Assembly: GCA_019310825.1 (NCBI GenBank)
Contig: JAFDDO010000001.1
Location: forward strand, 1-47,507
DNA from: Deltaproteobacteria bacterium
Lineage (GTDB): Bacteria > Desulfobacterota > Dissulfuribacteria > Dissulfuribacterales > UBA3076
Reading direction: 5' to 3'
DNA: 47,507 nucleotides
Shown here: positions 8,433 to 47,134 of the stretch, one piece after another
Layout of the letters: each line of letters begins with the position of its first letter
Position numbering within the stretch: the stretch's first letter is position 1
Notes under the pieces: generated by a model
Seen by the model: the letters and a program-made list of their open reading frames with translations, nothing else
Databases searched by the model: none
What the model was told of the DNA's origin: nothing
Translations under genes and position numbers: made by a program

Positions 8433-8580
8433 CTTCACTACAAGTCAAAAGTAATTAACACTTTGTTGATCTTGTATTTTGACAGTAAAATTTGAAAACT
8501 AAAATTTGAAATTGAGAAAAATACAAAGATATAGACGCGTTACCTAATTTCTAATTTCAAATTTCCAGTTTCGACAGCGG
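8433..8580. repeat. ~145-nt intergenic element, copy A (partner at 43104-43244), with an internal AT-rich heptamer-array hairpin
   Basis: By-eye alignment with 43104-43244 is identical at most positions, with one ~6-nt indel. Hairpin arms are 8488-8519 (aaatttgaaaactaaaatttgaaattgagaaa) and 8543-8575 (cctaatttctaatttcaaatttccagtttcgac). Confidence 0.75.
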
Positions 8581-8596
8581 TTACTTCAGTAATGTT

Positions 8597-9160
8597 TTAT
8601 TTCTTATCCTTTTTGTTCTTGGATTTTACCTGGTTATCATAGGCTTTTATGACCTCCTCCGTAATATCTACATCAGAGTTAATGAAATATATACCAGGCA
8701 TGTTTTTGTCCAGAATGAGCGTGTATCCACCTTCCTCACCAATATGGCTCACAACCTTTTCCAGTTCATTGAGTATTGGCTCCATGCTTTTGGTTTCTGC
8801 CTGGCGCATTTCAAACTGAGCATCCTCTTTTTCATCTTGAAGATCCCGAAAAGCCTTTTTATATTCGCGCTCCTTTTCTGCCCTGGCAGCCTCGTTCATT
8901 AAAGGACCTTTTTTTTCAATGTCTTCCTTAAATGCATTGATCTCATCCTGTTTATCCCTGAGTTGTTTCTGCAAATTTGTAAGTTTCTTGTTGAGCTTCT
9001 CCATGGCCTTTTGGCCGGCCACGGATTTTCGTACCACTTTTTGCATATTGATAACAGCTATCTTTGCCTGAGCTGTTTCTCCAGCAGTTACACTACAGCA
9101 CAGGACCGCGGTCCACAAAAAAATAAGCAGCACAGGTATTAAGCTTAGGCGACCTTTCAT
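8597..9160 (-). CDS. skp: Periplasmic chaperone Skp/OmpH family
   Basis: Signal peptide followed by AKIAVINMQKV, then a long K/E-rich coiled region and YTLILDK near the C-terminus. This is the typical OmpH architecture. Confidence 0.8.
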   Translation of the reverse strand: MKGRLSLIPVLLIFLWTAVLCCSVTAGETAQAKIAVINMQKVVRKSVAGQKAMEKLNKKLTNLQKQLRDKQDEINAFKEDIEKKGPLMNEAARAEKEREYKKAFRDLQDEKEDAQFEMRQAETKSMEPILNELEKVVSHIGEEGGYTLILDKNMPGIYFINSDVDITEEVIKAYDNQVKSKNKKDKK

Positions 9161-9370
9161 AAGACAATCACTACCCCCTGAGCCCTTTCATAACTCCCAT
9201 GTCCTGCCATAAGGCTATATCGCCCGTTGGTGAAAAATGCCGACAAACTTTACAGCTTGCCATTGAACAAGGCTAAGAGTTTTTTCAAAAGGCACTTTTG
9301 CAAAATAATGACCACAGCGTCGCCATGCAGCGCTTGGTCAACGTTTCTTTGGATATCAAAACCTTTTAGA

Positions 9371-9970
9371 CTACTTTATGAGAACAAAGTCATCTCTACG
9401 GTCTTTTGCCCATGCTTCTTCGTTTTGTCCTGGATCCAGAGGCCGTTCCTCACCAAAGCTCACAGTTCCTATACGATCCGGGTTTACACCCAGATTGACA
9501 AGATATGCCTGAGCGCCTTTTGCCCTTCTTTCCCCAAGAGCCAAGTTATACTCATTTGTACCACGCTCATCACAGTTACCCTGGATTTCGATCATGACAT
9601 CAGGATGATCAAGCAGGAACAGAGCATTCTCTTCCATTATGGACTTCATGTCATCACGGATGTGAAAACGGTCAAAGTCAAAGTATACGGGGTGCATGGG
9701 GGCGCTGGTTCTGCCCTCAGAAATAGTCTCTCCAAAGCCGGCGGTAGCGCCCATAGCTTCGCATGGGATTTCTGTCTCACCCATACCAACTTCAGCAATA
9801 CCGGGCATTCCTTCAGGCCCTACGGCCGATTCCCCGATCTGCTCAACGACAAGTGCTTCTCCTTCTCCGCCTCTAACTGGTTTTTTACCACACCCGGCCA
9901 AAAGTCCCAGGCTCAATATCGAAATCAGCGCCAGCAAACAAAATTTTACTCCCACATTTCCCCGATACAT
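9371..9970 (-). CDS. pal: Peptidoglycan-associated lipoprotein Pal (OmpA-like domain)
   Basis: Lipobox LLAGC and OmpA_C motifs (VYFDFDRFHIR...GNCDERGTNEYNLALGERRA...RRDDF). The start is taken at ATG 9970, which lies 6 nt after GGGAGG. The ORF track start at 9985 is a TTG inside the RBS. Confidence 0.85.
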   Translation of the reverse strand: MYRGNVGVKFCLLALISILSLGLLAGCGKKPVRGGEGEALVVEQIGESAVGPEGMPGIAEVGMGETEIPCEAMGATAGFGETISEGRTSAPMHPVYFDFDRFHIRDDMKSIMEENALFLLDHPDVMIEIQGNCDERGTNEYNLALGERRAKGAQAYLVNLGVNPDRIGTVSFGEERPLDPGQNEEAWAKDRRDDFVLIK

Positions 9971-10204
9971 AAATGCCTCCCGCAAAATGGTTTTTAGTCA
10001 TACCATGCAACTACAATAGAATTACACTTAAAATCCACAGATTATGCTCCACTTTAGCAGAGGGGAAACAAAATTCAACCTGTTTTATTTACCAATAATG
10101 ATAATTCAAAAATTGCGAATTTAAGAATTAAAGGTGCTTTTTTGATTATAATCACTCAATTTCTCAACCCATCCATTTAGCCTTTTGAAAGAGCCTCGCT
10201 TTAT

Positions 10205-10328
10205 CCCGAATTATGCAGTTGCCGGGTTTGCCGAAAATGAGAGGCGGAGGTTGCGTAGACGCACTTTGGTACTTCAAACACCCGACAATAAAGCAGATTC
10301 GGTGAAATCGGCAACTGCATAATTTGGG
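10205..10328. other. Long-range inverted repeat (20-nt arms, 19/20 complementary) enclosing 84 nt; candidate structured RNA or hairpin element
   Basis: cccgaattatgcagttgccg at 10205-10224 pairs with cggcaactgcataatttggg at 10309-10328. The interior has nested pairings (ccgaa/ttcgg, tgcgtagacgca). Confidence 0.5.
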
Positions 10329-10356
10329 TTTATAATCCGGTTCCTCTTTAAGCACT

Positions 10357-14899: not shown

Positions 14900-15041
14900 T
14901 TGGTTGTTGGATAAAAAATTCAACGTAAGCATATAACCGTTCATACTCACAGACAAGGAGTGAATAATTACTTGAGCATAGCCCTTTGTTACTTTCTATG
15001 TTATTTCCTTATTCAAGATTAAGAAAGGGGGTTTTTTATAG

Positions 15042-17687: not shown

Positions 17688-17987
17688 GATGAACGTCGAA
17701 CATCGAACGTCCAACGTCGAATGAAAAACGAATATCCAATACCGAACATTAAACAGCTATTTCTGTTTCTTTTCACCCGCCTTGATACTCGTAACGAAAA
17801 ACGAACTATTCCATTATTCCTCATGCGGGGCAAAAATCCAAGCCTCAATACCTCCCCCTATAAATTCAATGGGTTGTAGAATTTCCGAGACGTTTAATTA
17901 ACAGCCTTTCTTACATATCATAAGTCTGTTTCTTCATCTTTTCCCATTCAACATTCGATGTTGGACGTTAGATGTTCGATGTTCATC
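17688..17987. repeat. 300-bp element bounded by 36-bp inverted repeats made of GAACRTC heptamers (MITE/IVS-like)
   Basis: Left arm gatgaacgtcgaacatcgaacgtccaacgtcgaatg (17688-17723). Right arm cattcgatgttggacgttagatgttcgatgttcatc (17952-17987). 33/36 positions are complementary and the interior is 228 bp. Confidence 0.75.
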
Positions 17988-18189: not shown

Positions 18190-19992
18190 ATGCATAAGAA
18201 GACAATCTTAGTCGTAGGTTCCGGAGGACGCGAACACGCCCTTTGCTGGAAGCTGGCTTCCAGCCCCAGGATTTCAAGAGTATTCTGTGCTCCTGGAAAT
18301 GCTGGCATAAGTCAACATGCCGTCTGTGTACCTTTAAAAGTCTCTGACATTAAAGGCCTTGTATCATTTGTCAAAAAGGAGGGTATCGATATAACGTTAG
18401 TAGGTCCGGAAACCCCTCTGACTGAAGGTCTGGTAGATAAATTTAACGAACATGGACTTGCAGTATTCGGACCTACAAAAGCGGCTGCTGAGATTGAGGC
18501 AAGTAAGGTATTTTCAAAAGATTTACTCACTGAGGCAGGTATACTAACAGGGGCCTACAAGGTCTTTACCGAGCCTAATGCCGCTTTTGATTATATCAAG
18601 AACATAGTTGGAGTGCCCATTGCAATAAAGGCAGACGGGCTGGCAGCCGGCAAGGGAGTGTTGATCGCCCACTCACTTGCTGAGGCGGAAGAGGCAATAG
18701 ATCTCATCCTTTGCAAAAAGGCCTTTGGTAAAGCAGGCAATTGTCTGATAGTAGAGGAATTTCTCGCCGGGGAAGAAGCCTCCTTCATGGCTATAACCGA
18801 CGGAACAACAGTCCTTCCCCTTGCCACTTCTCAGGACCATAAGCCCATATTTGATAATGATCAGGGGCCTAATACCGGCGGTATGGGTGCTTACTCTCCA
18901 GCACCAGTGGTAAGCGGTGCCCTATTTGACGATATCATGGACACGGTTATGAGACCCACAGTAGAAGCCATGGCAAGGGCAAAAAGGCCTTATCAGGGAG
19001 TACTTTATGGTGGCCTTATAATTAAAGATGATGTGTTTAAGGTCTTGGAATTTAACTGCCGGTTCGGTGATCCAGAGGCCCAGCCGATCCTGATGCGACT
19101 TAGCACTGACCTGATGGAAGTATTTGAGGCAGCACTTGAAGGCAGGTTAAATGAAGTCAAACTTGAGTGGGACCCAAGGGCTGCTGTCTGCGTTGTCCTG
19201 GCCTCTGGAGGCTATCCTGGAAGCTATGAGACAGGCAAGGTCATCCACGGCCTGGAAAAAGTGGCTGAGATGCAAGACGTAATGGTCTTCCACGCAGGGA
19301 CTGCCAAGGATGGAGACCGATTCGTCACATCTGGTGGAAGAGTTCTGGGGATTACGGCACTTGGTAATACAATTCCAGAAGCGATAGAACTTGCATATAA
19401 AGCAGTTGGTCAAATTTCCTGGGAAGGCATGCACTATAGAAGGGATATTGGTCAAAAGGCCCTCGGATACACGTCCGGTGCGACCAGTACGCCTGTTTCC
19501 TCGCATCTCGGCATCTCTGCCAAGGTAGGTATTGTCATGGGAAGCCTCAGTGACAAGGAGGTTATGGAAGCAGCCAGGGATATCCTGAATGAGTTTGGTA
19601 TTGCATATGAGTTGAGGGTTGCCTCAGCACATCGCTCCCCGGAACTTACTGCATCATACGCCAGGGAGGCAGAAACTAGAGGAATAAAGGTCTTAATAGC
19701 CGGCGCCGGAATGGCCGCACACTTGGCCGGCAGCTTGGCAGCTAATACTATACTCCCTGTAATAGGGGTACCAGTAAACAATTCGGCATTGAATGGACTT
19801 GATGCCTTGCTCTCCACTGCCCAGATGCCCCCTGGAGTCCCTGTTGCAACTATGGCAATAGGAGAAGCCGGGGCAAAAAATGCCGCCTTGCTGGCACTTC
19901 AGATCCTGGCACTGGAAGATCAGGACCTTGCAAGGAAATTAAAAAAATACAGAGAGGCCCAGGCAAGAGAGATAGAAGAGGTTAAACTTTAA
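18190..19992 (+). CDS. purD: Fusion protein: phosphoribosylamine-glycine ligase (PurD) + N5-CAIR mutase (PurE)
   Basis: N-terminal KILVVGSGGREHAL...ATP-grasp...GGRVLGITA is PurD. The C-terminal ~160 aa are PurE (KVGIVMGSLSDKEVM...SAHRSPE...AGMAAHLAG...PVIGVPV). ATG 18190 follows GGGGAG. Confidence 0.9.
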   Translation: MHKKTILVVGSGGREHALCWKLASSPRISRVFCAPGNAGISQHAVCVPLKVSDIKGLVSFVKKEGIDITLVGPETPLTEGLVDKFNEHGLAVFGPTKAAAEIEASKVFSKDLLTEAGILTGAYKVFTEPNAAFDYIKNIVGVPIAIKADGLAAGKGVLIAHSLAEAEEAIDLILCKKAFGKAGNCLIVEEFLAGEEASFMAITDGTTVLPLATSQDHKPIFDNDQGPNTGGMGAYSPAPVVSGALFDDIMDTVMRPTVEAMARAKRPYQGVLYGGLIIKDDVFKVLEFNCRFGDPEAQPILMRLSTDLMEVFEAALEGRLNEVKLEWDPRAAVCVVLASGGYPGSYETGKVIHGLEKVAEMQDVMVFHAGTAKDGDRFVTSGGRVLGITALGNTIPEAIELAYKAVGQISWEGMHYRRDIGQKALGYTSGATSTPVSSHLGISAKVGIVMGSLSDKEVMEAARDILNEFGIAYELRVASAHRSPELTASYAREAETRGIKVLIAGAGMAAHLAGSLAANTILPVIGVPVNNSALNGLDALLSTAQMPPGVPVATMAIGEAGAKNAALLALQILALEDQDLARKLKKYREAQAREIEEVKL

Positions 19993-20203
19993 ATTAGAAA
20001 TTAGAAATTTGGTAGAGATAAAATGAGTTTGCGAGTTGGATGTTTACAAACTGACAAAAGAATTATCAGACATGGTCTAGTACGACCTTGATAAGTGGAA
20101 CAAGAAAGTTCAGAACACCGTGAGCTATCAGATAATACGATCATCTAAAACAGTACAAAAGCATGAAGGCCAAATTTCCAGTTCCTATTTTCTAATTTCA
20201 ATG
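19991..20203. repeat. Inverted heptamer-array arms (aaattag/ctaattt type) flanking ~157 bp that carries a decayed reading frame
   Basis: Left arm aaattagaaattagaaatttgg (19991-20012). Right arm ccaaatttccagttcctattttctaatttcaatg (20170-20203). The right arm shares aaatttccagtt with the 8433 and 43104 elements. Confidence 0.7.
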
Positions 20204-22204: not shown

Positions 22205-22212
22205 GGTATATA

Positions 22213-22237
22213 GTGGGATAAAGTGGGGGAAAGGGGT
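22213..22237 (+). promoter_or_regulatory. Candidate MraZ operator: three direct pentamer repeats at 10-bp phasing
   Basis: GTGGG (22213-17), GTGGG (22223-27) and GGGGT (22233-37), 8 nt upstream of the mraZ ATG. E. coli MraZ is known to bind GTGGG direct repeats with 10-bp periodicity. Confidence 0.5.
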
Positions 22238-25778: not shown

Positions 25779-28700
25779 TGTTTGGTAATACACAAAACGA
25801 AAGGACATTGCGGGATATGTTAGAAGTGCTGAGACCTCCTGTTTCTATATCACCTGAGCTGGATGACGTAAAAATCAGGGGCATAACCGCAGACTCCAGA
25901 CAGGTAAAACAGGAATACATATTTGTTGCAATTCCAGGCACTGAATTTGATGGAAGACAGTTTATCAATGATGCCGTGCTGAAAGGAGCATCTGCCCTGT
26001 TAATGCCAAGTCAAGATGTACATCGTTACCTCAAGACCGTTCCTGGAGCACTTCCTGTTATAGGAGTGGACGACCCCAGGCTTTCAACCGGTCTTCTGGC
26101 GAGTGCCTTTTATGGAAATCCCAGTAAAAAAATGGCCCTTATAGCCATTACAGGCACTAATGGTAAGACTACGATCACATACCTCCTGGAAAGCATTTTC
26201 AGCAAAGCCGGGCTGAATCCTGGTGTAATCGGGACTGTAAACCAGAGACATTGTGGCATTGAGGTACCTTCTGAACTCACTACCCCCAATGCTATAAAAC
26301 TGCAGGAGATCCTGGCCAACATGTTGAAACAAGGGGCAAAGACAGTGGCCTTAGAGGTATCTTCCCACGCCCTTGACCAACAAAGGATCTCAGGATGTAG
26401 TTTCGCAGCGTCTATTTTTACCAATCTGGGCCGCGATCATCTGGATTATCATCAGGACATGGAACAATACTTCCAGGCCAAGGTAAAATTGTTTTTGGAG
26501 TATCCCTCTGATACGGCAATTATCAACATTGATGACTTGTATGGAAAGCGCCTATGGGAGATATTACAAAAGGAAAAGATCAGTTATGGCCTCAATCCTG
26601 AGGCCGAGGTAAGACCCACGTTCCAGACCATTAATATTGATGGAATAACAGGTAAGCTTGCCACGCCCAAAGGGCCTGTTTCTATCAAATCCAAGCTTAT
26701 AGGTTTGCACAATCTATACAATATCCTTGCAGCAGTCGCGGCTTCAATCACCCTTGGGATTGATCCAGACCATATTCAGACCGGCATAGAATCAATAATG
26801 CGTATCCCGGGGAGACTCGATCCTGTGCATACCCCCCAGGGAGTGACCGCCCTTGTAGACTATGCCCACACTCCTGACGCCCTTGAAAGTGTTCTGAACA
26901 GCCTTATCAGATTAGGTCCCAAGCCTCTGATTTGCGTAATCGGCTGTGGAGGAGACAGAGACAGGGGCAAGCGTCCTCTCATGGCGAAGGTAGCTGCTTC
27001 ACTGGCAGATATTGTTGTACTGACCTCGGACAATCCTCGTACTGAAGACCCTCTGGCAATAATCGATCAGATGTTGAACGGCCTCAGAGACCTTCCTCCT
27101 TATCACCATGCAACCAAAGCTGAAGTAAAGGTAATTCCAGCCAGAAAAGACGCTATTTTATGGGCAGTAGAAAAAGCGCGGCCTGGTGCCTGTCTGCTCG
27201 TGGCCGGGAAGGGCCACGAAACCTACCAGATAATTGGCAACGAACGACTTGCCTTTGACGATAGAGAAATATTGAAAAAGGCCTTTGGGACGAGGGGTAA
27301 GGGACAAAGGTCGAAGGTCGAAGGTCGAAGGTCGAAGTCAGAGAGTCAAAAGTCAAAGGTAGAGAGTCTTGAGGATCAGGGATTTCGAATAAAGGCTTCT
27401 CAGGTGGCAACGGCTATTGGAGCCAATGTCCTTTCGGGTGACCCGGATACAGAAATCCATGGCATATCAACAGATTCCAGATCAGTAAGAAAAGGAAATA
27501 TCTTCTGGGCACTTTCAGGGGACCGTTTCAATGGTCATGATTTTGTCCTTGATGTTATAAAAAAAGGGGGCATTGGTGCAGTAATCAGTTCTAGCTTTGA
27601 CTTTCGAGCTTTGACTTTAAGCCCTCGATCTCGTCCTATCCTATTGCAAGTCCAAGATGTGTTAAAGGCCCTGGGAGATTTCGCAGCATGGTATAAAGAA
27701 CACCTTGGAATCAAGGTGGTTGGCATTACGGGCAGTTGTGGCAAGACCACTACAAAAGAACTGATTTTCTCGATCCTGGAAAAAAAATGGAAAGTGACTA
27801 AAACGCCCGGGAATTTTAATAACCTTATCGGACTCCCGCTCAGCCTGCTTTCGGCCAAATCCGATGATTCCTGGGCAGTTCTGGAAATGGGAACGAACCA
27901 ACCAGGAGAAATACCCCGGCTGTGTGAAATTGCCCGGCCACAAGTGGGCCTTATTACTACCATACAGCCTGCCCACCTTGTCGGCCTGGGGGGCATAAGG
28001 GAAGTAGCCAGGGAAAAATGGAAACTTTGGCGAGCCCTTCCCCAAACAGGTGCGGCAGTGGTGAACCTTGACGATCCTCTGGTGATGGAAGGGGCCAAAG
28101 ATCTGACGTGCCAGGTGGTGGGCTATTCTCTAACACCTAATCCCCAATTCAAAATTCAAAATTCAAAATTCAAAACTGCAATTACCTGCCTATCATGGAC
28201 CCCTGGCGAGCATGGCACTCTGCTGGATCTTGATATTACCGGAAGCAGACTCTCTGTTGATCTTCCCCTTATAGGAGGAGTGAACGTGCAAAATGCCGTT
28301 GCAGCCGCAGCTACAGGCCATGCAATGGGGCTGACACCGGCCCAGATCAAGCAAGGGCTGGAGGGAGTAAAACCAATTCCGGGCCGCCTTTTTCTGAAAA
28401 ATTTTGGACCTAAATGGAGGCTGATAGACGATTCTTATAATGCAAACCCAGGCTCTATGAGAGCGGCTCTTGAGGCTCTCGATCTCTGGAGCAGGGGCGA
28501 AAAAAAGATAGCGATCCTGGGAGACATGCTGGAACTCGGGGATGCTGCCCACGACTTCCACCAGGATCTTGGACGACTTTCAGCTAATACAGGAGTTGAT
28601 CTTTTAGTCTTCGTAGGCGAATTTGCAGATGCTGTTTCCAAAACTGCCCAAAAGGCTGGTATTTCGCAAAAGGCTATTCGTATCTTCCCCAACACGGAGG

Positions 28701-28834
28701 ATTTGCTTTCCTGGATAGAATCAGCCGCCCTTGATTGCATGCCCTCTCCAGCAACCATACTTGTGAAGGGATCACGGGCCATAGGTCTTGAAAAAGCAGT
28801 GGATGCCCTTATCAGGCATCTGAGAGAGGAATAG
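25778..28834 (+). CDS. murE/murF: Fused MurE (UDP-MurNAc-tripeptide synthetase) + MurF (UDP-MurNAc-pentapeptide synthetase)
   Basis: One continuous 1019-aa frame. The MurE part has [18 protein letters not shown] and DNPRTEDP. A repeat-encoded linker follows, about 27287-27385. The MurF part has [28 protein letters not shown] and [11 protein letters not shown]. The ATG overlaps the ftsI stop (TGATG). Confidence 0.9.
27308..27370. repeat. Tandem heptamer array (GGTCGAA x4 then AGTCAAA-type units) encoding the MurE-MurF linker
   Basis: aggtcgaaggtcgaaggtcgaaggtcgaagtcagagagtcaaaagtcaaaggtagagag, translated as [21 protein letters not shown]. Confidence 0.85.
27589..27633. repeat. Inverted partner array (ctttgacttt units) inside the murF portion
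   Basis: ttctagctttgactttcgagctttgactttaagccctcgatctcg. Its reverse complement contains aaagtcaaagctaga, matching aaagtcaaaggtaga at 27349-27364. It encodes [14 protein letters not shown]. Confidence 0.75.
28145..28176. repeat. Tandem heptamer array AATTCAA x4 in frame in the murF portion
   Basis: caattcaaaattcaaaattcaaaattcaaaac encodes [12 protein letters not shown]. Confidence 0.85.
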
Positions 28835-29918: not shown

Positions 29919-29990
29919 AAAAATTAGTGATTTGGTGATTGAAATGTCTGTGTGTGTCTGTGGCTAATGAATTAATGACTGGGTAATTGA

Positions 29991-31412
29991 GTGGAACTGA
30001 AAGGCAAAAAAGTAACAATACTGGGCATGGGGGTATCCGGCCAGGCAGCTGCCGGATGGATCGTCTCTCAAGGGGCACAAGTCATATGCAGTGACTTAAA
30101 TCCCCTGGAAAAGTGGCCTAAGGGCCTGGCGGGCTGGTGTAACAAAAATGGTGTTGTAATAGAGACAAAAAAACATAAGGTAGAGACCTGCCTCTCATCC
30201 GACCTGATAGTGGTTAGCCCCGGTGTTTCACCTGTAATCCCTGCCCTTGAGGCAGCACGCAGATCCAATATCCCTGTGGTTGGTGAAATGGCCCTCGCGG
30301 CATCCTGCTGGAAAGGACCTCTGGTTGGCATCACCGGCACAAACGGAAAAACCACTACCACGATGCTTGTGGATGAAATGCTAAAAAAGGCCAATGTGCC
30401 TCATGTAAGGGCCGGGAACATTGGAACACCATTATCAGCATTTATTGAAGAACATACTGAGGAAACTATCGCGGTCCTTGAGATTAGCAGCTTCCAATTG
30501 GATTATTTCCCAAGGACCAGATACTTCTCCTTCACTCCTCCAAGGTTCAAGACAACAGCATGGCTCAATCTTGCCCCGGACCACCTTGATCGCTACCAGG
30601 ACATCAAAAGTTACGGAGATAGCAAGGCGGTAATCTATGACTTCCAAGGGCCTGAGGATTGGGCTATCCGCAACATGGACGACAAGGAACTAGAAGCGTG
30701 GAAGTACAGAGGACGTGCTAAAAGGCTCTACTTCGGGATGCTGCGCCCCGGAGTTCCAGGAGCCGGGCTGGACACCTCTTTGAAAAAAATCAACGTCATG
30801 TGGTCTGATAATAAATGGGAGGAATATGACTTAGAAAGCTGGTCCCTAAGGGGTCGACATAATATTGAAAACCTGGCTTGTGCCATACTTATGTCACGCC
30901 TGGCAGGTGCAGGTGCTGGTGCAGTACAGTCTGTTATCCAAAGCTTCAAAGCGGCACACCACAGACTTCAGTTGGTGGTCCAAAATGGGGGCATCGACTA
31001 TTATGACGACTCCAAGGCCACCAATGTTGCATCTGTACTTCGCGCACTGGAGTCCATAGATCAGCCAATAGTGCTCATCGTGGGCGGCCGCGGCAAGGGT
31101 GAAAATTATGCTTCCCTGGCCGAGGCCACAAAAAAGGCACGTATTCGTGGTACGATTGTTATGGGCGAAGAGGCCAAGGCGCTTGAAAAAGTCCTAAGTA
31201 AGGTAGTGCCGGTTATTCAAGTACGTGGAACAAAAAACGGCAAAAAGACTATGAGAAAAGCCGTGGAGGAAGCCACGTCCCTGGCTGAGCCTGGTGATGC
31301 CATACTCCTTTCCCCGGCCTGTTCCAGCTTTGATATGTTCAAAAATTATGAAAAACGTGGCGTGGCCTTTCAGGAGGCAGCCAGGAAATTGTGTAATTTG
31401 GCGATTGAGTAA
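29991..31412 (+). CDS. murD: UDP-N-acetylmuramoylalanine-D-glutamate ligase MurD
   Basis: [22 protein letters not shown], and a C-terminal domain with DDSKATN. GTG start. The last 6 codons and the stop lie in a repeat array. Confidence 0.9.
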   Translation: MELKGKKVTILGMGVSGQAAAGWIVSQGAQVICSDLNPLEKWPKGLAGWCNKNGVVIETKKHKVETCLSSDLIVVSPGVSPVIPALEAARRSNIPVVGEMALAASCWKGPLVGITGTNGKTTTTMLVDEMLKKANVPHVRAGNIGTPLSAFIEEHTEETIAVLEISSFQLDYFPRTRYFSFTPPRFKTTAWLNLAPDHLDRYQDIKSYGDSKAVIYDFQGPEDWAIRNMDDKELEAWKYRGRAKRLYFGMLRPGVPGAGLDTSLKKINVMWSDNKWEEYDLESWSLRGRHNIENLACAILMSRLAGAGAGAVQSVIQSFKAAHHRLQLVVQNGGIDYYDDSKATNVASVLRALESIDQPIVLIVGGRGKGENYASLAEATKKARIRGTIVMGEEAKALEKVLSKVVPVIQVRGTKNGKKTMRKAVEEATSLAEPGDAILLSPACSSFDMFKNYEKRGVAFQEAARKLCNLAIE

Positions 31413-31544
31413 TTTGGTAATTTTAGGAACGGAATTTTAATTTAAAAACGCAGATGTAAGCAGATTGTGAATTTAACTATGAGTCGAGACACACATAAGC
31501 ACAAAACGATCACCAAATTATCAAATTATCAAATTATCAAATTA
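31393..31544. repeat. Inverted pair of octamer arrays (taatttgg / ccaaatta-tcaaatta) bracketing the murD-murG junction
   Basis: Left arm gtaatttggcgattgagtaatttggtaatttt (31393-31424) contains the murD stop. Right arm caccaaattatcaaattatcaaattatcaaatta (31511-31544) encodes the murG N-terminal TKLSNYQIIKL. Confidence 0.8.
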
Positions 31545-32684
31545 GTGGTGGCTGGTGGTGGCACAGGCGGGCATGTGTTTCCCGGAATGGCAGTGGCTGA
31601 GGCCATGGAGTCCTATGGCCGCATAGATATTCTATGGATAGGTACAGGCCGCCCGGTGGAAAAAATGGCGCTTTCAGGACGTAAATGGGCTTACCAAATA
31701 CTGGAAACAAGGCCTTTGCGGGGCTCAGGCCTTGCGGGGACCATACGCTCTCTGGCTGGACTTCCTTTCTCCACGATCAGGGCTTTTTCGTGGCTCAAAT
31801 CATTTAGGCCTCATGTAGTACTTGGTGTCGGGGGATATGTCTCCGGGCCCGTACTTCTTGCAGCGCGTATGCTGCGGATACCTGCAGCCCTCCACGAGCA
31901 AAACCTTATCCCTGGGCTCACAAATCGTTTGGCCTCTAGATTTGCAAAAACAGTGTTTGTGAGCTTTAAAAAAACTGTAAAATACTTCCCAAAAAATAGG
32001 GTAATTTTTACTGGAAATCCCGTACGGAAAAGCATAATTCAATCACAAAAACAAAAATTACCAAATTACCAAATTACCAAATTACCAAATCTTCTGGTTT
32101 TGGGAGGCAGTCAAGGTGCCAGATGCCTGAACCGGCTTGCCGGTTCGGCCATAAAGGTTTTGTGGCAATCCGACTTTCATTTGGAAATTATTCACCAAAC
32201 CGGCAAGCTGGATGTGTCATATGTTGAGAAATTTTACAAGGATGCAAATATTCCGGCCAAAGTGACCCCATTTATCTCCAACATTGGTGAATCCTATTCA
32301 TGGGCAGATCTAGTTATCTGCCGAGCAGGAGCGAGTACTCTGGCTGAACTCGCAACCATGGGGAAGCCATCGATACTCATTCCCTATCCCTGGGCAACGG
32401 AAAGCCATCAGGATGCCAACGCCAGAGAACTGAGTGAAGCCGGGGCTGCCAAATACTTCCTTGAAGGAGAAATCGGTGCTATAAAACTGGCAGGAGAGAT
32501 ACAGTCTTTGCTGGAGGATCCCCAAAAACTCATCAATATGGGAGAAAATGCTCGAAAACTTGAAAAACCCACGGCAGCTGCAGAGATGGCCTCTACACTG
32601 ATAGAGATGGCTGGACATACTTTTTCATATTCTGAAACAGAAACTAATTCATTGAAAGGTTCTATAGTACGTAACCATGTATAA
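31467..32684 (+). CDS. murG: UDP-GlcNAc:lipid I N-acetylglucosaminyltransferase MurG
   Basis: VVAGGGTGGHVFPGMAVA, LVLGGSQGA and GASTLAELA motifs. The start is ambiguous (GTG 31467, ATG 31479, GTG 31545/31548) and none has a clear SD. Confidence 0.9.
   Translation: MNLTMSRDTHKHKTITKLSNYQIIKLVVAGGGTGGHVFPGMAVAEAMESYGRIDILWIGTGRPVEKMALSGRKWAYQILETRPLRGSGLAGTIRSLAGLPFSTIRAFSWLKSFRPHVVLGVGGYVSGPVLLAARMLRIPAALHEQNLIPGLTNRLASRFAKTVFVSFKKTVKYFPKNRVIFTGNPVRKSIIQSQKQKLPNYQITKLPNLLVLGGSQGARCLNRLAGSAIKVLWQSDFHLEIIHQTGKLDVSYVEKFYKDANIPAKVTPFISNIGESYSWADLVICRAGASTLAELATMGKPSILIPYPWATESHQDANARELSEAGAAKYFLEGEIGAIKLAGEIQSLLEDPQKLINMGENARKLEKPTAAAEMASTLIEMAGHTFSYSETETNSLKGSIVRNHV
32055..32090. repeat. Tandem octamer array AAATTACC x4 in frame in the murG interdomain linker
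   Basis: aaattaccaaattaccaaattaccaaattaccaaat encodes KLPNYQITKLPN. Confidence 0.85.
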
Positions 32685-35038: not shown

Positions 35039-35880
35039 AAATTAGAAGGCCCTCTTCAGAATTCAGGTCTTCAGTATGTAGCTCCGGCTCGCGGGACAAA
35101 TCTGCCAAACCGGTATTTTCCTTGTCGTGGTCTATCCACCCTAAAATATTGGTTGGCTTAGCCATAATGTGCATTGGCTTTGTCGGCTTTTTTGTATGTC
35201 GATATTGGGCATGTCAATCTGATCTTTTCAGGATTTGTCAAGTTCTGGTGAAAGGCTGCGATCATGTAACAGAAGATGAGATTTTGCAACTGAGTGATGT
35301 GACCGCCCAGGACAATCTGCTGTCTCTCGATCTGAAATCAATTGCAACGTCCATAGAGGCGCATCCCTGGATCCATGCCGTTGAAGTTAAGAAAAAATTG
35401 CCGGATCACCTAATGATTAAGATCAAAGAACGTACGCCGGTAGCCTTATTGAACTCTGACAAAATGTATTTGGTTGATGAACAAGGTAAAATTATCGATA
35501 AGCTTTTAACGAAAGAGCGTTTTTCTCTCCCAATCATTACAGGAATTGATCCTAAAAACATTATAGATCACCAAATCAACAAATCAACAAATCAACAAAT
35601 CCAAAAGGCCATGGAATTAATATCCATGGCAAGCAAAGGCACAAGAACTCTAGGTGTCAACAATGTTAGCCAAATAGACATAGCCAAAAGAGAAACTTTA
35701 GTACTCTATACATCTGACAGCGCTATTCCTTTTTATTTTGACACTAAAAATCTCAGCGCCCAATTCAGTAAGGCGGAAAAAATCCTATATCAACTCTATC
35801 GTTCAGGAATATATAAAAAAGTAGCTAAAGTTGAGCTGGATTACGGCCCTGGCCAGGCCCTAGCCAGTCTGAAACATTAG
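35035..35880 (+). CDS. ftsQ: Cell division protein FtsQ (POTRA domain)
   Basis: ATG overlaps the murB stop (ATGA). TM helix, then POTRA (VLVKGCDHVTEDEIL...IEAHPWIHAVEVKKKLPDHLMIKIKER), in the position upstream of ftsA. Confidence 0.85.
   Translation: MKIRRPSSEFRSSVCSSGSRDKSAKPVFSLSWSIHPKILVGLAIMCIGFVGFFVCRYWACQSDLFRICQVLVKGCDHVTEDEILQLSDVTAQDNLLSLDLKSIATSIEAHPWIHAVEVKKKLPDHLMIKIKERTPVALLNSDKMYLVDEQGKIIDKLLTKERFSLPIITGIDPKNIIDHQINKSTNQQIQKAMELISMASKGTRTLGVNNVSQIDIAKRETLVLYTSDSAIPFYFDTKNLSAQFSKAEKILYQLYRSGIYKKVAKVELDYGPGQALASLKH
35569..35602. repeat. Tandem octamer array CAAATCAA x3-4 in frame in ftsQ
   Basis: caccaaatcaacaaatcaacaaatcaacaaatcc encodes HQINKSTNQQIQ. Confidence 0.85.
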
Positions 35881-38338: not shown

Positions 38339-38369
38339 GGATTTATAAAGAATTCTAAATTTTTCGACA

Positions 38370-38393
38370 CTTCAATCTTCAATCTTCAATTCC
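38370..38393. repeat. Tandem heptamer array CTTCAAT x3 supplying the last codons and stop of cdaR (minus strand)
   Basis: cttcaatcttcaatcttcaattcc. The minus-strand reading gives ...ELKIED followed by the stop. Confidence 0.8.
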
Positions 38394-39319: not shown

Positions 39320-40117
39320 CTAAACTATCCTCCTTCGCCACCATGGTTTTTCAGTCTCTTCAGGCGCAAAGGCGTTCTGCAGGATACGCCTGAGCGTGCC
39401 CAGATCTATGTCTCTGGTGATTTTTCCGGCAATGGCCACAGAGAGACTGCCGGTTTCCTCAGAAACGACCACTACCACAGCATCGGTCTGCTCGGTTATA
39501 CCTATAGCTGCCCTGTGTCTGGTGCCCAGGCGTTTGCTGATGCTTGGGTTCGTGCTCAAAGGCAGCACGCATCCAGCCACTAAAAGCCTATTCTTTTGAA
39601 TAATTACTGCACCGTCATGTAACGGTGTCCCCTTGTAAAATATTGTACAGAGCAAAGCACGAGTTACTCGCCCGTCAATTATCACTCCTGACTCAAGGTG
39701 GTCCCTTAAGCCCACATCCCTCTCAAGTACTATCAAGGCGCCTGTATGGTTCTCTGTTAAAGTAGTAACTGCCTTTGCAATCTCTTCAAGGACCCGGAAG
39801 GTCTTTACCCGAAGTTTCGGAAAAGGGGTCTGGCCCATCTGAGCCAGCGCTCTGCGAATATCGTCTTGAAATACTATTATGATGAGTAGAAACAAAGAGC
39901 TAAGGATGGTCCCCAGGAGCCAGTGAAGAGTGAAGAGTTTCAACTCGCCGGCTGCAAAATAAATCACAATAATTAAAGCCAGCCCTGCTGCCATCTGTAC
40001 AGCACGGGTTCCCCTGATAAGAAGGACGATACGGTATATGATGTAGGAGACCACCAAAATGTCCACTACATCCTGCCACCGAATTATTGGTATATATTGA
40101 GTAAGGCTATCAAGCAT
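39320..40117 (-). CDS. cdaA: Diadenylate cyclase CdaA (DisA_N/DAC domain, membrane-anchored)
   Basis: Three N-terminal TM helices, then GALIVLERD, PLHDGAVII, GTRHRAAIGITEQTDAVVVVVSEETG. Confidence 0.9.
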   Translation of the reverse strand: MLDSLTQYIPIIRWQDVVDILVVSYIIYRIVLLIRGTRAVQMAAGLALIIVIYFAAGELKLFTLHWLLGTILSSLFLLIIIVFQDDIRRALAQMGQTPFPKLRVKTFRVLEEIAKAVTTLTENHTGALIVLERDVGLRDHLESGVIIDGRVTRALLCTIFYKGTPLHDGAVIIQKNRLLVAGCVLPLSTNPSISKRLGTRHRAAIGITEQTDAVVVVVSEETGSLSVAIAGKITRDIDLGTLRRILQNAFAPEETEKPWWRRRIV

Positions 40118-40144
40118 TAAAAATTACACTGTATTATAGATAAT

Positions 40145-40270
40145 GCTGAATTTTGAATGTTGAATTGTGGAAGAACTTTTAAAAGAGATACACCTTTAAT
40201 CACACAGGTCATATTTTTTGAGATAAGGATGCCCTTTACCTTAATTCAGCATTCACAATTCAACATTTTT
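40145..40270. repeat. Hairpin element between folP and cdaA: arms of gaatgttgaatt-type repeats, 14-bp perfect core stem
   Basis: aatgttgaattgtg (40156-40169) pairs with cacaattcaacatt (40254-40267). The arms extend as degenerate tandem units and the interior is 84 nt. Confidence 0.75.
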
Positions 40271-40273
40271 TTA

Positions 40274-41125: not shown

Positions 41126-41183
41126 CCTTGTAACCGTTCACACTTTTTGGCAGGGAGTAAATAATTGCGCCATTCTTGTAGTA

Positions 41184-43007: not shown

Positions 43008-43103
43008 AAGTAATCCTCCGCTACACTAGTATATTTTTTAAACATAAATCAAAAAACATAATAAATCAAAATAACGAATTGAATACAATAATTATTTGGC
43101 GTC

Positions 43104-43244
43104 CTTCACGACAAGTCAAAAGTGGTTTACACTTTGTTGATCTTGTATTTTGGCAGTGAAATTTGAAACTTGAAATTGGAAAAAATACAAAAATGTAGAT
43201 GCGTTACCTAATTTCGAATTTCGAATTTCCAGGTTCAACATCGG
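43104..43244. repeat. ~145-nt intergenic element, copy B (partner at 8433-8580)
   Basis: cttcacgacaagtcaaaagtggtttacactttgttgatcttgtattttggcagtgaaatttgaaacttgaaattgg...cctaatttcgaatttcgaatttccaggttcaacatcgg aligns collinearly with copy A. Confidence 0.75.
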
Positions 43245-43312
43245 CATTAAATTCGATAATACACGCTTTTTCAAAAAAAGTATAAACTCGTGAATGAAGG
43301 ATGCCAATTATT

Positions 43313-44815: not shown

Positions 44816-45059
44816 GTATTAAGATCAGCTAGGATAACCATAATCTTTTGCTGAAGATACCCTATTTTCGGTATTATTTCAATTTCAGGAATTGCCTGTC
44901 GCTGCTGCCACGGAGTTAATATACTCTACATGGTCAGGAATTGTGTTTTTTGAATAAGTCGGAATTATAAAAAAATTGAACCGCTAATAGATACGAAGAT
45001 GGTTTTATTTTCGCATTCCTCGTAATCTTCGTAATAAAAAAATGGACAGCAATCCTGCA

Positions 45060-46940
45060 TCAGTGCCCGGCGGCTCTTAGTTCCTGTACCAGCGTTAACG
45101 GGATTTCCCACTTGTTGAGAGGACTGATCAAATAAAGTCCTTTAGCGAACGGAGTGATGTCGGCAATCAGCTTCCTGGTTAAGTCCAGGGCCGCCTTGCG
45201 TTGGTCTTCGACCTTTTCATACTTCCACAGACGTTCTCGAATATCTCTGGGAATTGAAATGCCTGGGATTTCGTTGTGCAGAAAATCCGCATTCTTGGCG
45301 GATATTAGAGGAAAAATACCTGTGAAAATCAAGAGATTCAGGTGTTGCGTCCGTTCCATCATGGCCTCTACGGCATCTCGATCAAAAATGGGCTGAGTCA
45401 TGACAAAATGCGCTCCCAGATCGGCCTTTCGTTCCAGCCTGCTGATCTGGAGGTCAGGATTTGCAGAGCGATAGCTGAAGGCCGCACCAATAGAAAAATT
45501 GGTCCGGTTTTTCATTGAGACCCCTGCCATGTTCAGGCCACGGTTGAACTGACTTATCATCTGTACCAGGCCAAAGGAGCGAACATCGAATACTCCGCTC
45601 ACACCGGGCTGATCCGTGGACGTGGCCGGATCTCCAGTGATAGCCAAGATGGCCTCTAATCCCAGGACATGAGCTCCCATGATCTGTGCCTGAAGACCCA
45701 AGATATTCCGATCCCTGCAGGTCAGATGAAGCACCGTCTGTATCCCTGTCTCCTCGCGTATTCTGTGTGCAAGCGACAGATTGTCCGCTCGGAGAACGGC
45801 CAGGGGATGTTCGGCGAGAGTAATTGCATCAGCGCCGGCATCGGCTAAGGCTCGTGCTCCAGCAAGAACTCCCTCTATATCCAGATGCTTGGGAGGATCA
45901 ACTTCCACAAGCACAGGAATGCGGTCGGATCTCAGGCTTTCGATCATTCCGCCCCTGCCAATAAAGTCCTTTCTGTCTTCGGGTAAATCAGAGGATTTCT
46001 CCACGCTCGTTACAACCCGTATGGCCTTGTGTCTCTTGATGTGAAGGTACTTTCTTAATTCATGGATATGGGCCGGTGTAGTACCGCAGCACCCGCCAAT
46101 CAATCGGACTCCGAACTTGACCATTTCAGCCACCTTTTCAGCCATATAGGCCGGTGGTGTCGAATATACCATGCGGTGTTCAACGATCTCAGGAAATCCG
46201 GCATTGGGGAATGCTGAAAGAAAAATTTCGTCCTTGAGGGAAGACAGACGCTGAACTGCCGAGAGCATGGCCTTGACTCCCCGTCCACAATTGGTACCAA
46301 CGACTGTGGCCCCTGCAGCGGCTGCTGCTCTGCCACAATCCAAGGCATCCAGGCCGGTGGCTGTCCGCCCATGAAACGGGTAGACCATCTGGGCCACAAT
46401 CGGAATATCAGGTGCAATCCTCTTTGCCGTTTCAATGGCCAAAAGCAGTTCGTCCAGATAGGTAAAGGTCTCAAGAATGAAAAGATCCACCCCGCCTTCC
46501 AGCAGAGCAGTCATCTGTTCGGCAAAGGCATTCTGTACTGTGCCAGACTCAACCTTACCATTCTCAAGTGGAAAATTTACACCTGTCGGGCCCATTGATC
46601 CAGCTACAAAAATTTCATTTCCCGCAGCTCGACGTGCCAGCTCAGCTCCCTTAAGGTTAATTTCCCGCACCCTTTGCTCCCTGCCGACCTTGAGCATTTT
46701 GAAACGATTAGCGCCAAAGGTATTGGTCTCAATGAGTTCGCTTCCGGCCCGAATGTATTCCTCATGAATGGAATAGACCAAGTCCGGATCGCTGATGTTA
46801 AGCAAATCAGTATTCTCTGCGAGGGCTACACCTTTTTCAAAGAGATAGGTCCCAAAGGCGCCATCTCCCAATATGACTTTCTCGTTAAGTTGCTCTACGA
46901 AGTTATGTTTCATTGGCCTGCTTATGTCTCCTTCACCCAT
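45060..46940 (-). CDS. Bifunctional homocysteine S-methyltransferase domain / 5,10-methylenetetrahydrofolate reductase (MetF-like)
   Basis: The N-terminal Hcy-binding domain has ILGDGAFGT, ETNTFGAN and GGCCGTTPAHI. The C-terminal MTHFR-like barrel has LVEVDPPK...ITGDP...FSIGAA. The start is 46940 or ATG 46913. Confidence 0.85.
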   Translation of the reverse strand: MGEGDISRPMKHNFVEQLNEKVILGDGAFGTYLFEKGVALAENTDLLNISDPDLVYSIHEEYIRAGSELIETNTFGANRFKMLKVGREQRVREINLKGAELARRAAGNEIFVAGSMGPTGVNFPLENGKVESGTVQNAFAEQMTALLEGGVDLFILETFTYLDELLLAIETAKRIAPDIPIVAQMVYPFHGRTATGLDALDCGRAAAAAGATVVGTNCGRGVKAMLSAVQRLSSLKDEIFLSAFPNAGFPEIVEHRMVYSTPPAYMAEKVAEMVKFGVRLIGGCCGTTPAHIHELRKYLHIKRHKAIRVVTSVEKSSDLPEDRKDFIGRGGMIESLRSDRIPVLVEVDPPKHLDIEGVLAGARALADAGADAITLAEHPLAVLRADNLSLAHRIREETGIQTVLHLTCRDRNILGLQAQIMGAHVLGLEAILAITGDPATSTDQPGVSGVFDVRSFGLVQMISQFNRGLNMAGVSMKNRTNFSIGAAFSYRSANPDLQISRLERKADLGAHFVMTQPIFDRDAVEAMMERTQHLNLLIFTGIFPLISAKNADFLHNEIPGISIPRDIRERLWKYEKVEDQRKAALDLTRKLIADITPFAKGLYLISPLNKWEIPLTLVQELRAAGH

Positions 46941-47090
46941 GAGACAAGATGATTTTCCTGCCTACCAGTGAGTTTGTTAACCCGCCACCAAACATCCGTT
47001 CCCTTCTTATAGCTCTATACTATACCAGCTTGTAGTCGACATTTCTACTCTTCAGCCCCCTTCTGCTCGTCTTAATGACACCGGGTCTTA

Positions 47091-47134
47091 CGAAAATCGA
47101 CCGGTCGTTTCTAGAATGTTTCGCTCGATTTTCG
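47091..47134. repeat. Small hairpin with 10-bp perfect arms of the TCGAAAA type
   Basis: cgaaaatcga (47091-47100) pairs with tcgattttcg (47125-47134), followed by a further attccg unit. Confidence 0.6.

Follow-up and report, generated by a model that had tools for sequence, protein, structure and literature searches.

Tandem hepta- and octanucleotide arrays in an uncultured Dissulfuribacterales bacterium: probable arms of hairpin-forming insertion elements

Tandem arrays with a period of 7 or 8 nt are scattered over contig JAFDDO010000001.1 of a Deltaproteobacteria bacterium (assembly GCA_019310825.1; Desulfobacterota, Dissulfuribacterales), and we analyzed them in the stretch from position 1 to 47,507, referred to below as the window. 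The arrays probably (we put the chance at roughly 55%) represent a lineage-specific system resembling the cyanobacterial short tandemly repeated repetitive (STRR) sequences, in which most arrays are the arms of hairpin-forming insertion elements that are maintained at the DNA level and are partly mobile. The evidence comes from the excess and inverted pairing of the arrays, from the fate of the same sites in a graded series of relatives, and from a dispersed family of elements that is linked to a four-helix-bundle gene.

Arrays of the window and their inverted pairing

Tandem Repeats Finder (TRF) was run on the 47.5-kb window, and rows of period 7 or 8 were merged before counting; 100 dinucleotide-preserving shuffles served as the null and 1.41 Mb of division and cell wall (dcw) cluster loci from 79 other bacteria as the control. 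The window contains 14 merged period-7/8 arrays, compared to a mean of 0.39 and a maximum of 2 in the shuffles. Their density of 0.29 per kb, or about one per 3.4 kb, is 6-fold higher than in the control dcw loci (0.045 per kb) and agrees with the one per 3-4 kb proposed in a first-pass annotation made from the sequence alone. Of the 19 TRF rows in the window with 2.5 or more copies, 15 have period 7 or 8, whereas in the controls coding repeats of period 6 or 9 are the most frequent. Independent assemblies from NCBI, JGI, and ENA carry these arrays at matching sites, and copy numbers are identical between the window and locus L088 (L numbers denote the loci used for comparison), which comes from a strain that is ~99% identical at the protein level. 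The arrays detected by TRF start at the following positions:

Period 7/8, first half of the window: 8544, 17691, 17954, 19991, 27307/27335, 28146, 31393, and 31514
Period 7/8, second half of the window: 32055, 35567, 38370, 40142, 43157, and 43210
Period 14: 27589

Nearly all coordinates in the first-pass annotation coincide with these TRF arrays; the segment at 47091-47134 proved to be a plain inverted repeat, and that at 29924-29945 lies under the TRF threshold and is orthologous to clear (ATTTGGTG)n arrays in relatives. Eleven of 19 arrays are fully non-coding and one more is almost so, in a window of which 14% is non-coding; the seven or eight others are inside genes, namely murE-murF, murD (3' end), murG, ftsQ, and ybbR. 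At least 10 different units are present in this one window. A core of the TCRAA type (TCGAA, TCAAA, or TTCAA), which had been suggested as a common feature, is indeed enriched, with 12 of 20 units and 8 of 13 independent loci containing it against a null of 5%, or 13-15% for AT-rich k-mers. The core is not universal and is no family signature; units differ between loci and, at one locus, between close relatives, and the commonest ancestral unit, CAAATCAC, lacks it.

Inverted pairing, which had been claimed as the usual arrangement, was borne out for seven pairs, with arm-to-arm duplex energies of -14.6 to -59.8 kcal/mol compared to about -7 to -24 kcal/mol for shuffled arms; the murE|murF linker and the pairs at 17.7 and 40.1 kb have the strongest duplexes. 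The paired elements at gene junctions, together with the non-tandem inverted repeat, are listed here with the evidence used:

17688..17987, no strand: element b, in the spacer between the divergent DUF364 and purD-purE genes (inverted repeat, duplex, family comparison)
8427..8580, minus strand: element a, in the skp-to-transketolase spacer, a paralogue of l (TRF, arm duplex)
43095..43250, minus strand: element l, in the tilS-to-ftsH spacer, a paralogue of a (TRF, duplex, alignment)
19991..20203, plus strand: element c, from the purD-purE stop to the tsaC start (TRF, duplex, orthologues)
31393..31544, plus strand: element g, at the murD/murG junction (TRF, co-variation)
40142..40270, minus strand: element k, from the folP stop to the cdaA start (duplex, RNA fold, presence/absence)
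47091..47134, no strand: 10-nt inverted repeat CGAAAATCGA / TCGATTTTCG, non-tandem (inspection; no TRF row)

The 36-nt arms of element b (17688-17723 and 17952-17987) consist of GAACRTC heptamers, are 92% complementary, and form the best pair in the window (-59.8 kcal/mol); the 228-nt loop is a decayed four-helix-bundle gene cassette. Elements a and l share ~85% identity over blocks of 85-88 nt and are related over roughly 150 nt overall. In element a, a loop of ~30 nt separates a GAAATTT-type arm (8478-8511) from a CTAATTT-type arm (8544-8572), the duplex energy is -14.6/-15.9 kcal/mol compared to about -7 kcal/mol for shuffled arms, and the arms are followed on the minus strand by a conserved 45-nt segment and a TTGACT-N16-TATGTT promoter-like site; orthologues were found in L090, with a nested insertion, and in L092. 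The arms of element l (43157-43182 and 43210-43229) are likewise followed on the minus strand by a promoter-like site, TTGACT-N17-AATAAT. This site is conserved in the pair and faces the transketolase-like gene and ftsH, respectively, and a regulatory role for a and l is conceivable from the sequences.

The 5' arm of element c, (AAATTAG)2.7 at 19991-20009, overlaps the purD-purE TAA stop, and its degenerate 3' arm (20170-20203) ends 4 nt before the tsaC GTG start; the arm duplex has -18.2 kcal/mol compared to -6.9 kcal/mol for shuffled arms, and the 160-nt loop is conserved, with orthologues in L091 and L092. The loop also holds a mini-ORF (open reading frame) beginning MSLRVGCLQ (20021-20077, plus strand), the first nine codons of which are kept in both orthologues. 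In element g, the murD TGA stop lies inside the GTAATTTG-type 5' arm (31393-31423), and the 3' arm, (CAAATTAT)3.9 at 31514-31544, codes for part of a clade-specific N-terminal extension of MurG, a peptide that is kept even in L085, where the array has decayed. Element k has a 77-nt loop between arms at 40142-40165 (AATGTTG-type) and 40243-40270, with a duplex energy of -27.1 kcal/mol. All six informative pairs, on either strand, have a G-containing stop-rich arm first and a C-containing stop-free arm second.

Some other repeats of the window stand apart from these arrays. The GTGGG-N5-GTGGG-N5-GGGG direct repeats just 5' of mraZ (22208-22233), which TRF lists and which are kept in all relatives, have the look of MraZ operator boxes and are unrelated to the heptamer arrays. 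An (AGTGAAG)2.4 repeat within cdaA (39922-39938) is invariant across the clade and is an ordinary coding repeat outside the variable system, and the motif CAGGGAGTRAATARTT is found in three spacers (3561-3586, 14954-14981, and 41147-41172).

Fate of the array sites in relatives and a dispersed family

The closest genome locus to the window comes from a Thermodesulfobacteriota metagenome-assembled genome (MAG), with 95% identity for MraY and 87% at the nucleotide level, and all others have at most 64%. Since the closest genomes are Thermodesulfobacteriota/Deltaproteobacteria MAGs, the host is not a cyanobacterium, as the first reading of the sequence had it. Searches with MurG and MutS revealed a graded, uncultured clade, to which the nearest named genera, Dissulfurimicrobium, Dissulfurirhabdus, and Dissulfuribacter, show ~50-54% MurG and 62% MutS identity.

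Ten syntenic dcw loci and three mutS-side loci of relatives were compared with the window. The array sites are occupied from the window to L084 (82% MurG identity), decayed in L085 (72%), and absent in L089 (60%). The unit sequence at a fixed site differs between close relatives, including switches between the 7- and 8-nt periods; at the murF site, for example, four lineages have the 7-mer AATTCAA and three have the 8-mer CAAATCAC. The dcw cluster ancestrally had one octamer, CAAATCAC, at six sites: murF, the murG 5' end, the murG linker, and ftsQ carried it in the sense orientation, and the murD 3' end and the spacer between mraY and murD carried its complement. The trio of murD-3', murG-5', and murG-linker arrays switched together to GTAATTTG, CAAATTAT, and CAAATTAC in the window lineage. 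The unchanged copy number in the ~99% identical strain argues that the arrays are not fast contingency loci; phase-variable contingency repeats were ruled out by the identical copy numbers of the window and L088 together with the in-frame state of the in-gene arrays in every relative.

Whole elements are present in some relatives and absent from others. The cdaA and folP genes abut in L081 (CAT|TAAAG), and a 157-200-nt array-armed element occupies this site in the window, L088, L086, and L082; other small elements are found there in L087 and L084, and short spacers in L083 and L085. Element k is absent in L081, L083, and L085. An ATTAAA at the cdaA-folP site is suggestive of a target-site duplication. 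The murD and murG genes overlap in the outgroup L089 and are separated by an array-armed spacer in the clade, and further array-armed insertions were found in the rsmH-ftsL and ftsL-ftsI spacers of relatives. Nested insertions within arrays, with the unit on both sides, were observed in the mraY-murD spacer (window and L001) and in the skp spacer (L090).

The loop of the cdaA-folP element is reverse-complemented in L082 and L086 compared to the window (local alignment score 60 of 68, vs 8 in the forward orientation), whereas the outer flanks keep their orientation, which places the recombination event within the inverted arrays. No promoter-like site was found inside the invertible loop and no recombinase nearby in the window scans. 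The murD-3' and murG-5' arms co-vary, with GGTGATTG/CAATCACY in relatives and GTAATTTG/CAAATTAT in the window, and in a species-by-species duplex matrix the murD-3' arm prefers its own-species partner (61 of 5040 permutations match). The co-evolution of this pair is suggestive, and it is weakened by the fact that relatedness inflates such permutation tests. Three of four tested arm pairings, including two long-range ones, showed no co-evolution. Stems that bracket whole genes (murF-internal with mraY-murD, and murD-3' with murG-internal) form good duplexes in some of the genomes but were rejected as a conserved feature, as the pairing is not maintained across the clade; that between murF and mraY-murD is lost in four relatives.

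A 21-mer from the loop of element b matches at least 120 metagenome stretches; a contig may hold several of them, and many are located where a contig ends. Among the matches listed, a stem of the form AAAGAT(GAACRTC)3-5GAAT ... (TTCGATG/TTGGACG)n GTTCAT is conserved, the loops are modular (54-520 nt), and the flanks are diverse. The longest loops encode, on the opposite strand, a protein of 121-126 residues that matches TIGR02436, "four helix bundle protein" (E = 1e-25, above the cut-off), and PF05635, "23S rRNA-intervening sequence protein" (E = 1e-14). The shorter loops represent versions of this gene with internal deletions, and in the minimal elements its 5' and 3' ends are joined at a shared AAGAAACAG; element b of the window retains only cargo residues 1-13 (17937-17899) and 108-121 (17801-17760). 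In L081, a PF05635 fragment is flanked by arrays of a different type, (GTTAGCC)n. Unlike 23S rRNA intervening sequences (IVS), the family copies sit in spacers of protein genes, and no rRNA was detected in any fetched locus. We found no literature that links this type of heptamer array to four-helix-bundle (IVS-protein) cassettes.

The 0.79 Mb of listed family-b loci are dominated by period 7 (307 TRF rows vs 16 for period 6) and contain 156 arrays of other than the seed type, or 0.20 per kb; of the 357 arrays in total, 223 are accompanied by an inverted partner array within 700 nt. Since these loci are rich in period-7 arrays, the enrichment, which the first-pass annotation had wanted to see sought genome-wide, extends beyond the window, in a sample ascertained through the element. 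A comparison of L169 and L170 revealed a solo arm left after deletion of an inner hairpin, and such deletion is therefore one route to unpaired arrays.

As a separate observation, a 31-nt inverted repeat at 10205-10328 surrounds a loop, GAGGCGGAGGTTGCGTAGACGCACTT...GTACTTCAAACACCCGACAATAAAGCAGAT, which recurs with other stems in the cdaA-folP spacer of L087 (~18600-18750) and beside a family-b copy in L121; from these sequences, it appears to be a further dispersed family of hairpins, in which the loop is conserved and the stem varies.

Arrays inside genes and their genomic context

The arrays of the dcw cluster and its flank that lie within genes, together with the short one in the mraY-murD spacer, are the following:

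27305..27368, plus strand: (AAGGTCG)4.4 and then AAGTCAA-type units, in frame in the MurE-MurF linker of the fused ORF (TRF, translation)
27589..27618, plus strand: in-frame (TTCGAGC TTTGACT)x2 (TRF period 14)
28146..28175, plus strand: perfect (AATTCAA)4.3 in a variable loop of the MurF half (TRF)
29922..29945, plus strand: short (ATTWGGTG)-type array in the mraY-murD spacer (comparison with relatives)
32055..32090, plus strand: perfect (AAATTACC)4.5 in the inter-domain linker of MurG (TRF, inverted repeat)
35567..35601, plus strand: (ATCAACAA)4.4 in a variable loop of FtsQ (TRF)
38370..38390, minus strand: (CTTCAAT)3, as read on the plus strand, at the C-terminus of YbbR, which ends in IKELKIED (TRF, translation)

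In relatives, the murE|murF linker carries the units CAAGGTT, GTCAAAG, CGGAGTT, CAGAGGT, CAAGGGA, or GGTCAGG. The array at 27589..27618 is partly complementary to the linker array ~220 nt upstream (27305-27368), with a duplex energy of -50.4 kcal/mol vs -24.4 kcal/mol for shuffled arms; these arms show no co-evolution across relatives (79 of 120 permutations are as good). The MurF loop contains the 8-mer array (CAAATCAC)5 in L001, L086, and L081. The mraY-murD array runs antisense to the CAAATCAC arrays and is split by a ~50-nt insertion in the window lineage, with the unit on both sides; it is uninterrupted in L086, L081, L082, and L083. The MurG-linker array, which matches the murD 3' arm with 82% complementarity over 44 nt, has 3 to 10.8 copies in relatives, with the units CAAATCAC, TCAATCAC, CACAAAAT, or AATCACAG. 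The orthologous FtsQ loop carries (CAAATCAC)n in L086, L081, L087, and L083 and a decayed array in L085. The array in YbbR sits in the convergent ftsZ/ybbR junction, the equivalents of which have (AATTCCTC)4.4 in L086 and (CAATCAT)4.7 in L081.

The in-gene arrays translate into hydrophilic peptides such as DHQINKSTNQQI and NHQITKSPNHQI in linkers and loops, as had been noted from the translations. They are in frame in every relative, and even the peptide of the decayed array in L085 is still in frame. The encoded peptide changes along with the unit, yet the DNA remains perfectly tandem, and homogenization therefore acts at the DNA level. The stop-free orientation of arrays within genes was seen as described in the first-pass annotation, and it is mostly a matter of survivorship: an array whose period is not divisible by three is read in every frame, so that only stop-free units persist in ORFs, and this explains the orientation rule without any function. 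In addition, (AAGGTCG)n is stop-free in both orientations.

Pfam scans gave the gene order of the window as mglA/mglB, an HD-domain protein, a transketolase-like gene, skp, amiC, mutS, ispA, a deacetylase, DUF364, a purD-purE fusion, tsaC, and mltG, and then the dcw cluster with mraZ, rsmH, ftsL, ftsI, a murE-murF fusion, mraY, murD, murG, murC, murB, ftsQ, ftsA, and ftsZ; ybbR-cdaA, folP, ftsH, tilS, and a metH-like gene follow on the other strand. No tRNA or tmRNA was detected in a scan of the window. The murE and murF genes are fused in one 1019-aa ORF (25775-28834, plus strand) throughout the clade and also in the array-free outgroup L089, and ftsW is not present between murD and murG. A glmM-like (PGM_PMM) gene lies between ftsZ and ybbR in L082, L083, L085, L086, and L089, with a fragment in L084, and is missing at this junction (38339-38371), the place of the (CTTCAAT)3 array, in the window, L088, L081, and L087. 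An inserted segment with a strong TTGACA...TATCAT promoter-like site was observed 5' of ftsZ in L086 (15395-15656), L083 (15618-16119), and L085 (15618-15810); it opens with a (AATTGAGG)-type array in L083 and L086 and is missing in the window. The transketolase-like gene (6487-8442, minus strand) is in two frames, with a shift near 8212-8230 that puts its N-terminal part (MPMFYIDIEKQ...SGHPGGSLS...) out of frame with a 574-aa ORF; relatives have an intact 651-aa gene, and the split is either a frameshift (pseudogene) or a sequencing error.

Origin of the arrays and relation to known repeats

In the scheme that we favor, non-autonomous hairpin elements would have colonized inter-cistron spacers and permissive protein linkers and loops. 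Their arrays persist at a site for long while unit, period, and copy number turn over, and growth and homogenization are probably due to mispairing of slipped strands and to repair templated by hairpins. An element's arms interact at the DNA level, as the one loop inversion and the one co-evolving pair suggest; arrays attract further nested insertions, and loss of an inner hairpin can leave a solo arm. At least one subfamily, that with GAACRTC arms, is dispersed in high copy and derives from a heptamer-stem cassette with a four-helix-bundle (23S-rRNA-IVS/Avd-like) gene; the mobilizing enzyme would act in trans. In polycistronic mRNA, arm pairing may bring the upstream stop close to the downstream start, and insertions between formerly abutting coupled genes were perhaps tolerated because translational coupling was thereby preserved; any effect on mRNA stability or processing would be similar to that of repetitive extragenic palindromic (REP) sequences and bacterial interspersed mosaic elements (BIMEs). 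Inside genes, arrays would survive in the stop-free form only, as loop peptides. Of the three roles considered in the first-pass annotation (RNA processing stems, protein-binding iterons, and footprints of an insertion or repair process), the last is the closest to the evidence.

Several observations weigh against such insertion elements. Among the elements of the window, dispersal is shown for element b only, and the sample of its family was picked through the element b 21-mer itself; a/l sequences were found in 2 of the 120 listed metagenome loci and the loops of c, g, k, and d in none. Neither a transposase nor a REP-associated tyrosine transposase (RAYT) or reverse transcriptase was found in the scanned ORFs of the window or recurrently near the family copies; when the ORFs of the 120 listed loci were clustered, only ordinary paralogous families emerged, with no transposase recurring beside family-b copies. 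A clean empty site with an unambiguous target-site duplication was not found; for family b, the search yielded instead orthologous sites that differ in loop length and one internal hairpin deletion. The long positional conservation, the conserved loop of element c, and the promoter-like sequence of a and l are also predicted by a cis-regulatory function. Finally, the in-gene arrays of FtsQ, MurF, and MurG fill loops and linkers that are repeat-free and of similar length in outgroups, as was seen for the MurF loop; since loops of similar length were replaced and no large insert was added, the in-gene arrays may have arisen in situ.

We consider it unlikely that the arms are selected cis-acting RNA stems of 20-35 bp that serve in RNase III-type cleavage, stabilization, or translation coupling, their tandem nature being incidental. 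A stem of this length fits RNase III, stems persist across the clade, and the pairs between co-directional genes have their arms at the upstream stop and the downstream start: purDE, murD, folP, and ybbR have the 5' arm on or directly beside their stop, and the 3' arm ends just before or within the start of tsaC and murG. The path of murD/murG co-evolution, G-to-A and C-to-T, is also compatible with G-U intermediates. However, sense and antisense duplex energies show no consistent bias, the AU-rich stems of a, l, and g are not more stable than shuffles (z-scores of -0.55 to -1.6), and in single-sequence folds compared with shuffles element k alone stands out, with z-scores of -3.8 in sense and -5.5 in antisense. 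The three arm pairs without co-evolution and the loss of the murF/mraY-murD pairing count against such stems as well, as do the position of element b between divergent genes and the dispensability of elements in close relatives. RNAalifold gave no consensus structure for five copies of the a/l hairpin, because shifts of the repeat register defeat the alignment, and Rfam returned no match at gathering thresholds and, at E up to 0.5, a weak irrelevant snoRNA match at 31747 only. Neither strong RNA-level selection nor a single shared binding protein found support in this analysis.

It is very improbable that the arrays are iterons or operators to which a few sequence-specific DNA- or RNA-binding proteins, or just one, attach as global regulators. 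This role, proposed for the repeats of Geobacter, Beggiatoaceae, and Nostoc (PMC2700814; PMC4679880; bioRxiv 10.1101/2022.06.06.494920), would agree with the enrichment of TCGAA/TCAAA/TTCAA, with the adjacency of arrays to start codons and promoter-like sites, and with CAAATCAC or its complement at six dcw sites in the clade ancestor, yet there are at least 10 units per window, unit and period change wholesale at a fixed site between close relatives, the copy number ranges from 3 to ~11 at one site, and essential genes have arrays in their coding sequence. The window domain scans revealed no nearby gene for a candidate binding protein, and a single such protein is unlikely since units turn over. 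Somewhat less improbable, though still poorly favored, is a neutral, microsatellite-like slippage bias in a 7-nt register, as proposed by Mrazek and co-workers, with palindromes as slippage hot spots that give rise to inverted pairs. Heptamers are the most over-represented class of simple repeats in many bacteria (cited in PMC4692102 and PMC4679880), and the diversity of units, the location of in-gene arrays in pre-existing variable loops, and the similar inverted heptamer pairs that Acidobacteria, Nitrospira, and other Desulfobacterota have in their dcw loci agree with slippage; it leaves unexplained the dispersed family of at least 120 copies with a conserved stem and cargo, the presence or absence of whole elements including their loops, and the paralogous copies a and l. 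An assembly artefact in low-complexity sequence, which had been raised as a doubt, is practically negligible: family copies are often at contig ends, and repeats do break assemblies, but the NCBI, JGI, and ENA assemblies carry the same sites, reading frames are kept, and the copy number is the same in the 99% identical strain.

A broader form of the insertion-element scheme, which we regard as distinctly unlikely, is that the hepta- and octamer hairpins are the stems of a mobile IVS-type cassette around Avd-like four-helix-bundle genes that inserts, with its gene or as a gene-less form, between cistrons here and into 23S rRNA in other bacteria, with the repeat stem as its recognition or processing module, and that STRRs and the pairs of Geobacter, Acidobacteria, and Nitrospira are footprints of one widespread, undescribed class. 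As a further idea within this scheme, the array arms might be recombination sites that flip the enclosed segment. The hairpin-of-heptamers design is not confined to the clade, since control dcw loci of Acidobacteriaceae, Nitrospira, and other Desulfobacterota contain inverted heptamer pairs, several of them directly after mraY:

L064: 4203-4279
L031: 14842-14920 and 17253-17324
L015: 11088-11321
L010: 10295-10351

The likeness to STRR repeats suggested in the first-pass annotation is apt. Mazel in 1990 and Elhai in 2008 reportedly described STRR heptamers of cyanobacteria with small dispersed repeats nested in them. The tandem heptamers of STRRs, in 3-5 or more copies each, are scattered over many loci, most of them intergenic and often at the start or end of a gene; at a given site, close relatives differ in unit and copy number, and small insertions nest inside. 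The window arrays share with them the tandem heptamers at many dispersed, mainly intergenic loci, the variable units, and the nested insertions, but differ in the host phylum, the many 8-mers, and the presence within essential genes. The units CCCCAGT (STRR1), TTGGTCA (STRR2), and CAACAGT (STRR3) are not found in two or more tandem copies on either strand of the window. In Nostoc, (TTCAAAA)n occurs upstream of recF and ~20 other genes (bioRxiv 10.1101/2022.06.06.494920), and this unit is the same as that at 28146-28175 here. Inverted pairing was reported to be rare for the Nostoc GGGGAYT repeats (PMC4692102), whereas it is the rule here.

The presumed novelty of such arrays outside the cyanobacteria did not hold, since paired arrays are known in Geobacter metallireducens and Xanthomonas and heptamer arrays in Beggiatoaceae. 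In G. metallireducens, families of 3-5 tandem 7-9-nt repeats, mostly in opposite-strand pairs at variable distance, occur between and within genes, and some of them have insertion sequence (IS) elements at a fixed distance; the families, each with a single consensus, were interpreted as regulator sites (Aklujkar et al. 2009, PMC2700814). That host belongs to the same superphylum, and the window likewise has paired tandem sites of this kind, intergenic and intragenic. The Geobacter units are different, however: GGACCGG is not in tandem here, and GTTGCTYN, TCTCCGTS[Y], and MTYCTGA are not TRF consensus units; moreover, units turn over at fixed sites in our clade, and one family comes with a four-helix-bundle gene. 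Xanthomonas has inverted pairs of the heptamer GGGAATC that vary in length and sequence between species at the same sites (PMC4692102); GGGAATC is not in tandem in the window. The TAACTGA arrays of Beggiatoaceae, with 2-6 copies, are mostly intergenic and just upstream of start codons (MacGregor 2015, PMC4679880). The forward unit has stops in all frames and ends ORFs, the reverse one occurs inside ORFs, and this single unit is used genome-wide with one indirect (inverted) repeat vs 169 direct-repeat sets (PMC4679880). Both systems have heptamer arrays near gene starts and the same stop-codon orientation logic, but TAACTGA is not in tandem here, where many units and inverted pairing prevail.

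Other mobile or invertible elements are similar in part. REP, BIME, and REPIN (REP doublet forming hairpins) sequences and miniature inverted-repeat transposable elements (MITEs) are, like the window elements, short hairpin-forming non-autonomous repeats in operon spacers, mosaic or nested, and targets of insertion; the stems here differ in consisting of tandem 7-8-nt units, and some arrays are intragenic. As a REP/REPIN partner, no Y1 transposase or RAYT was found among the scanned window ORFs or the multicopy ORFs near the listed family copies. Only the family of element b is MITE-like: its members are bounded by terminal inverted repeats, encode no transposase, measure 130-600 bp, and occur in high copy number in varied flanks, whereas a/l, c, g, and k are low copy. 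The IVS of 23S rRNA (PF05635/TIGR02436, Avd-like) have a long stem around a loop with the same kind of small ORF, but the elements described here sit in protein-gene spacers, with no rRNA in the fetched loci, and their stems are heptamer arrays. In a comparison with invertons, the cdaA-folP segment, flanked by inverted repeats, was seen in both orientations between species, and no promoter-like site was found in its loop and no recombinase nearby.

In cyanobacteria, heptamer repeats have been on record since 1990, with Geobacter, Xanthomonas, and Beggiatoaceae added later. What is added here is the long persistence of array positions with turnover of unit and period, recombination between arms, the occupation of essential dcw genes, and the link of one array type to a four-helix-bundle cassette. 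In the graded series of genomes, one can trace the same sites as whole elements come and go, a loop is inverted, units turn over, and further insertions become nested. Essential division and peptidoglycan genes (the murE-murF fusion, murG, and ftsQ) tolerate the repeats as loop peptides over long evolutionary times, and, with one array type tied to a defined cargo, the question of whether such arrays originate as a mobile hairpin cassette, by slippage bias, or as regulatory sites becomes testable.

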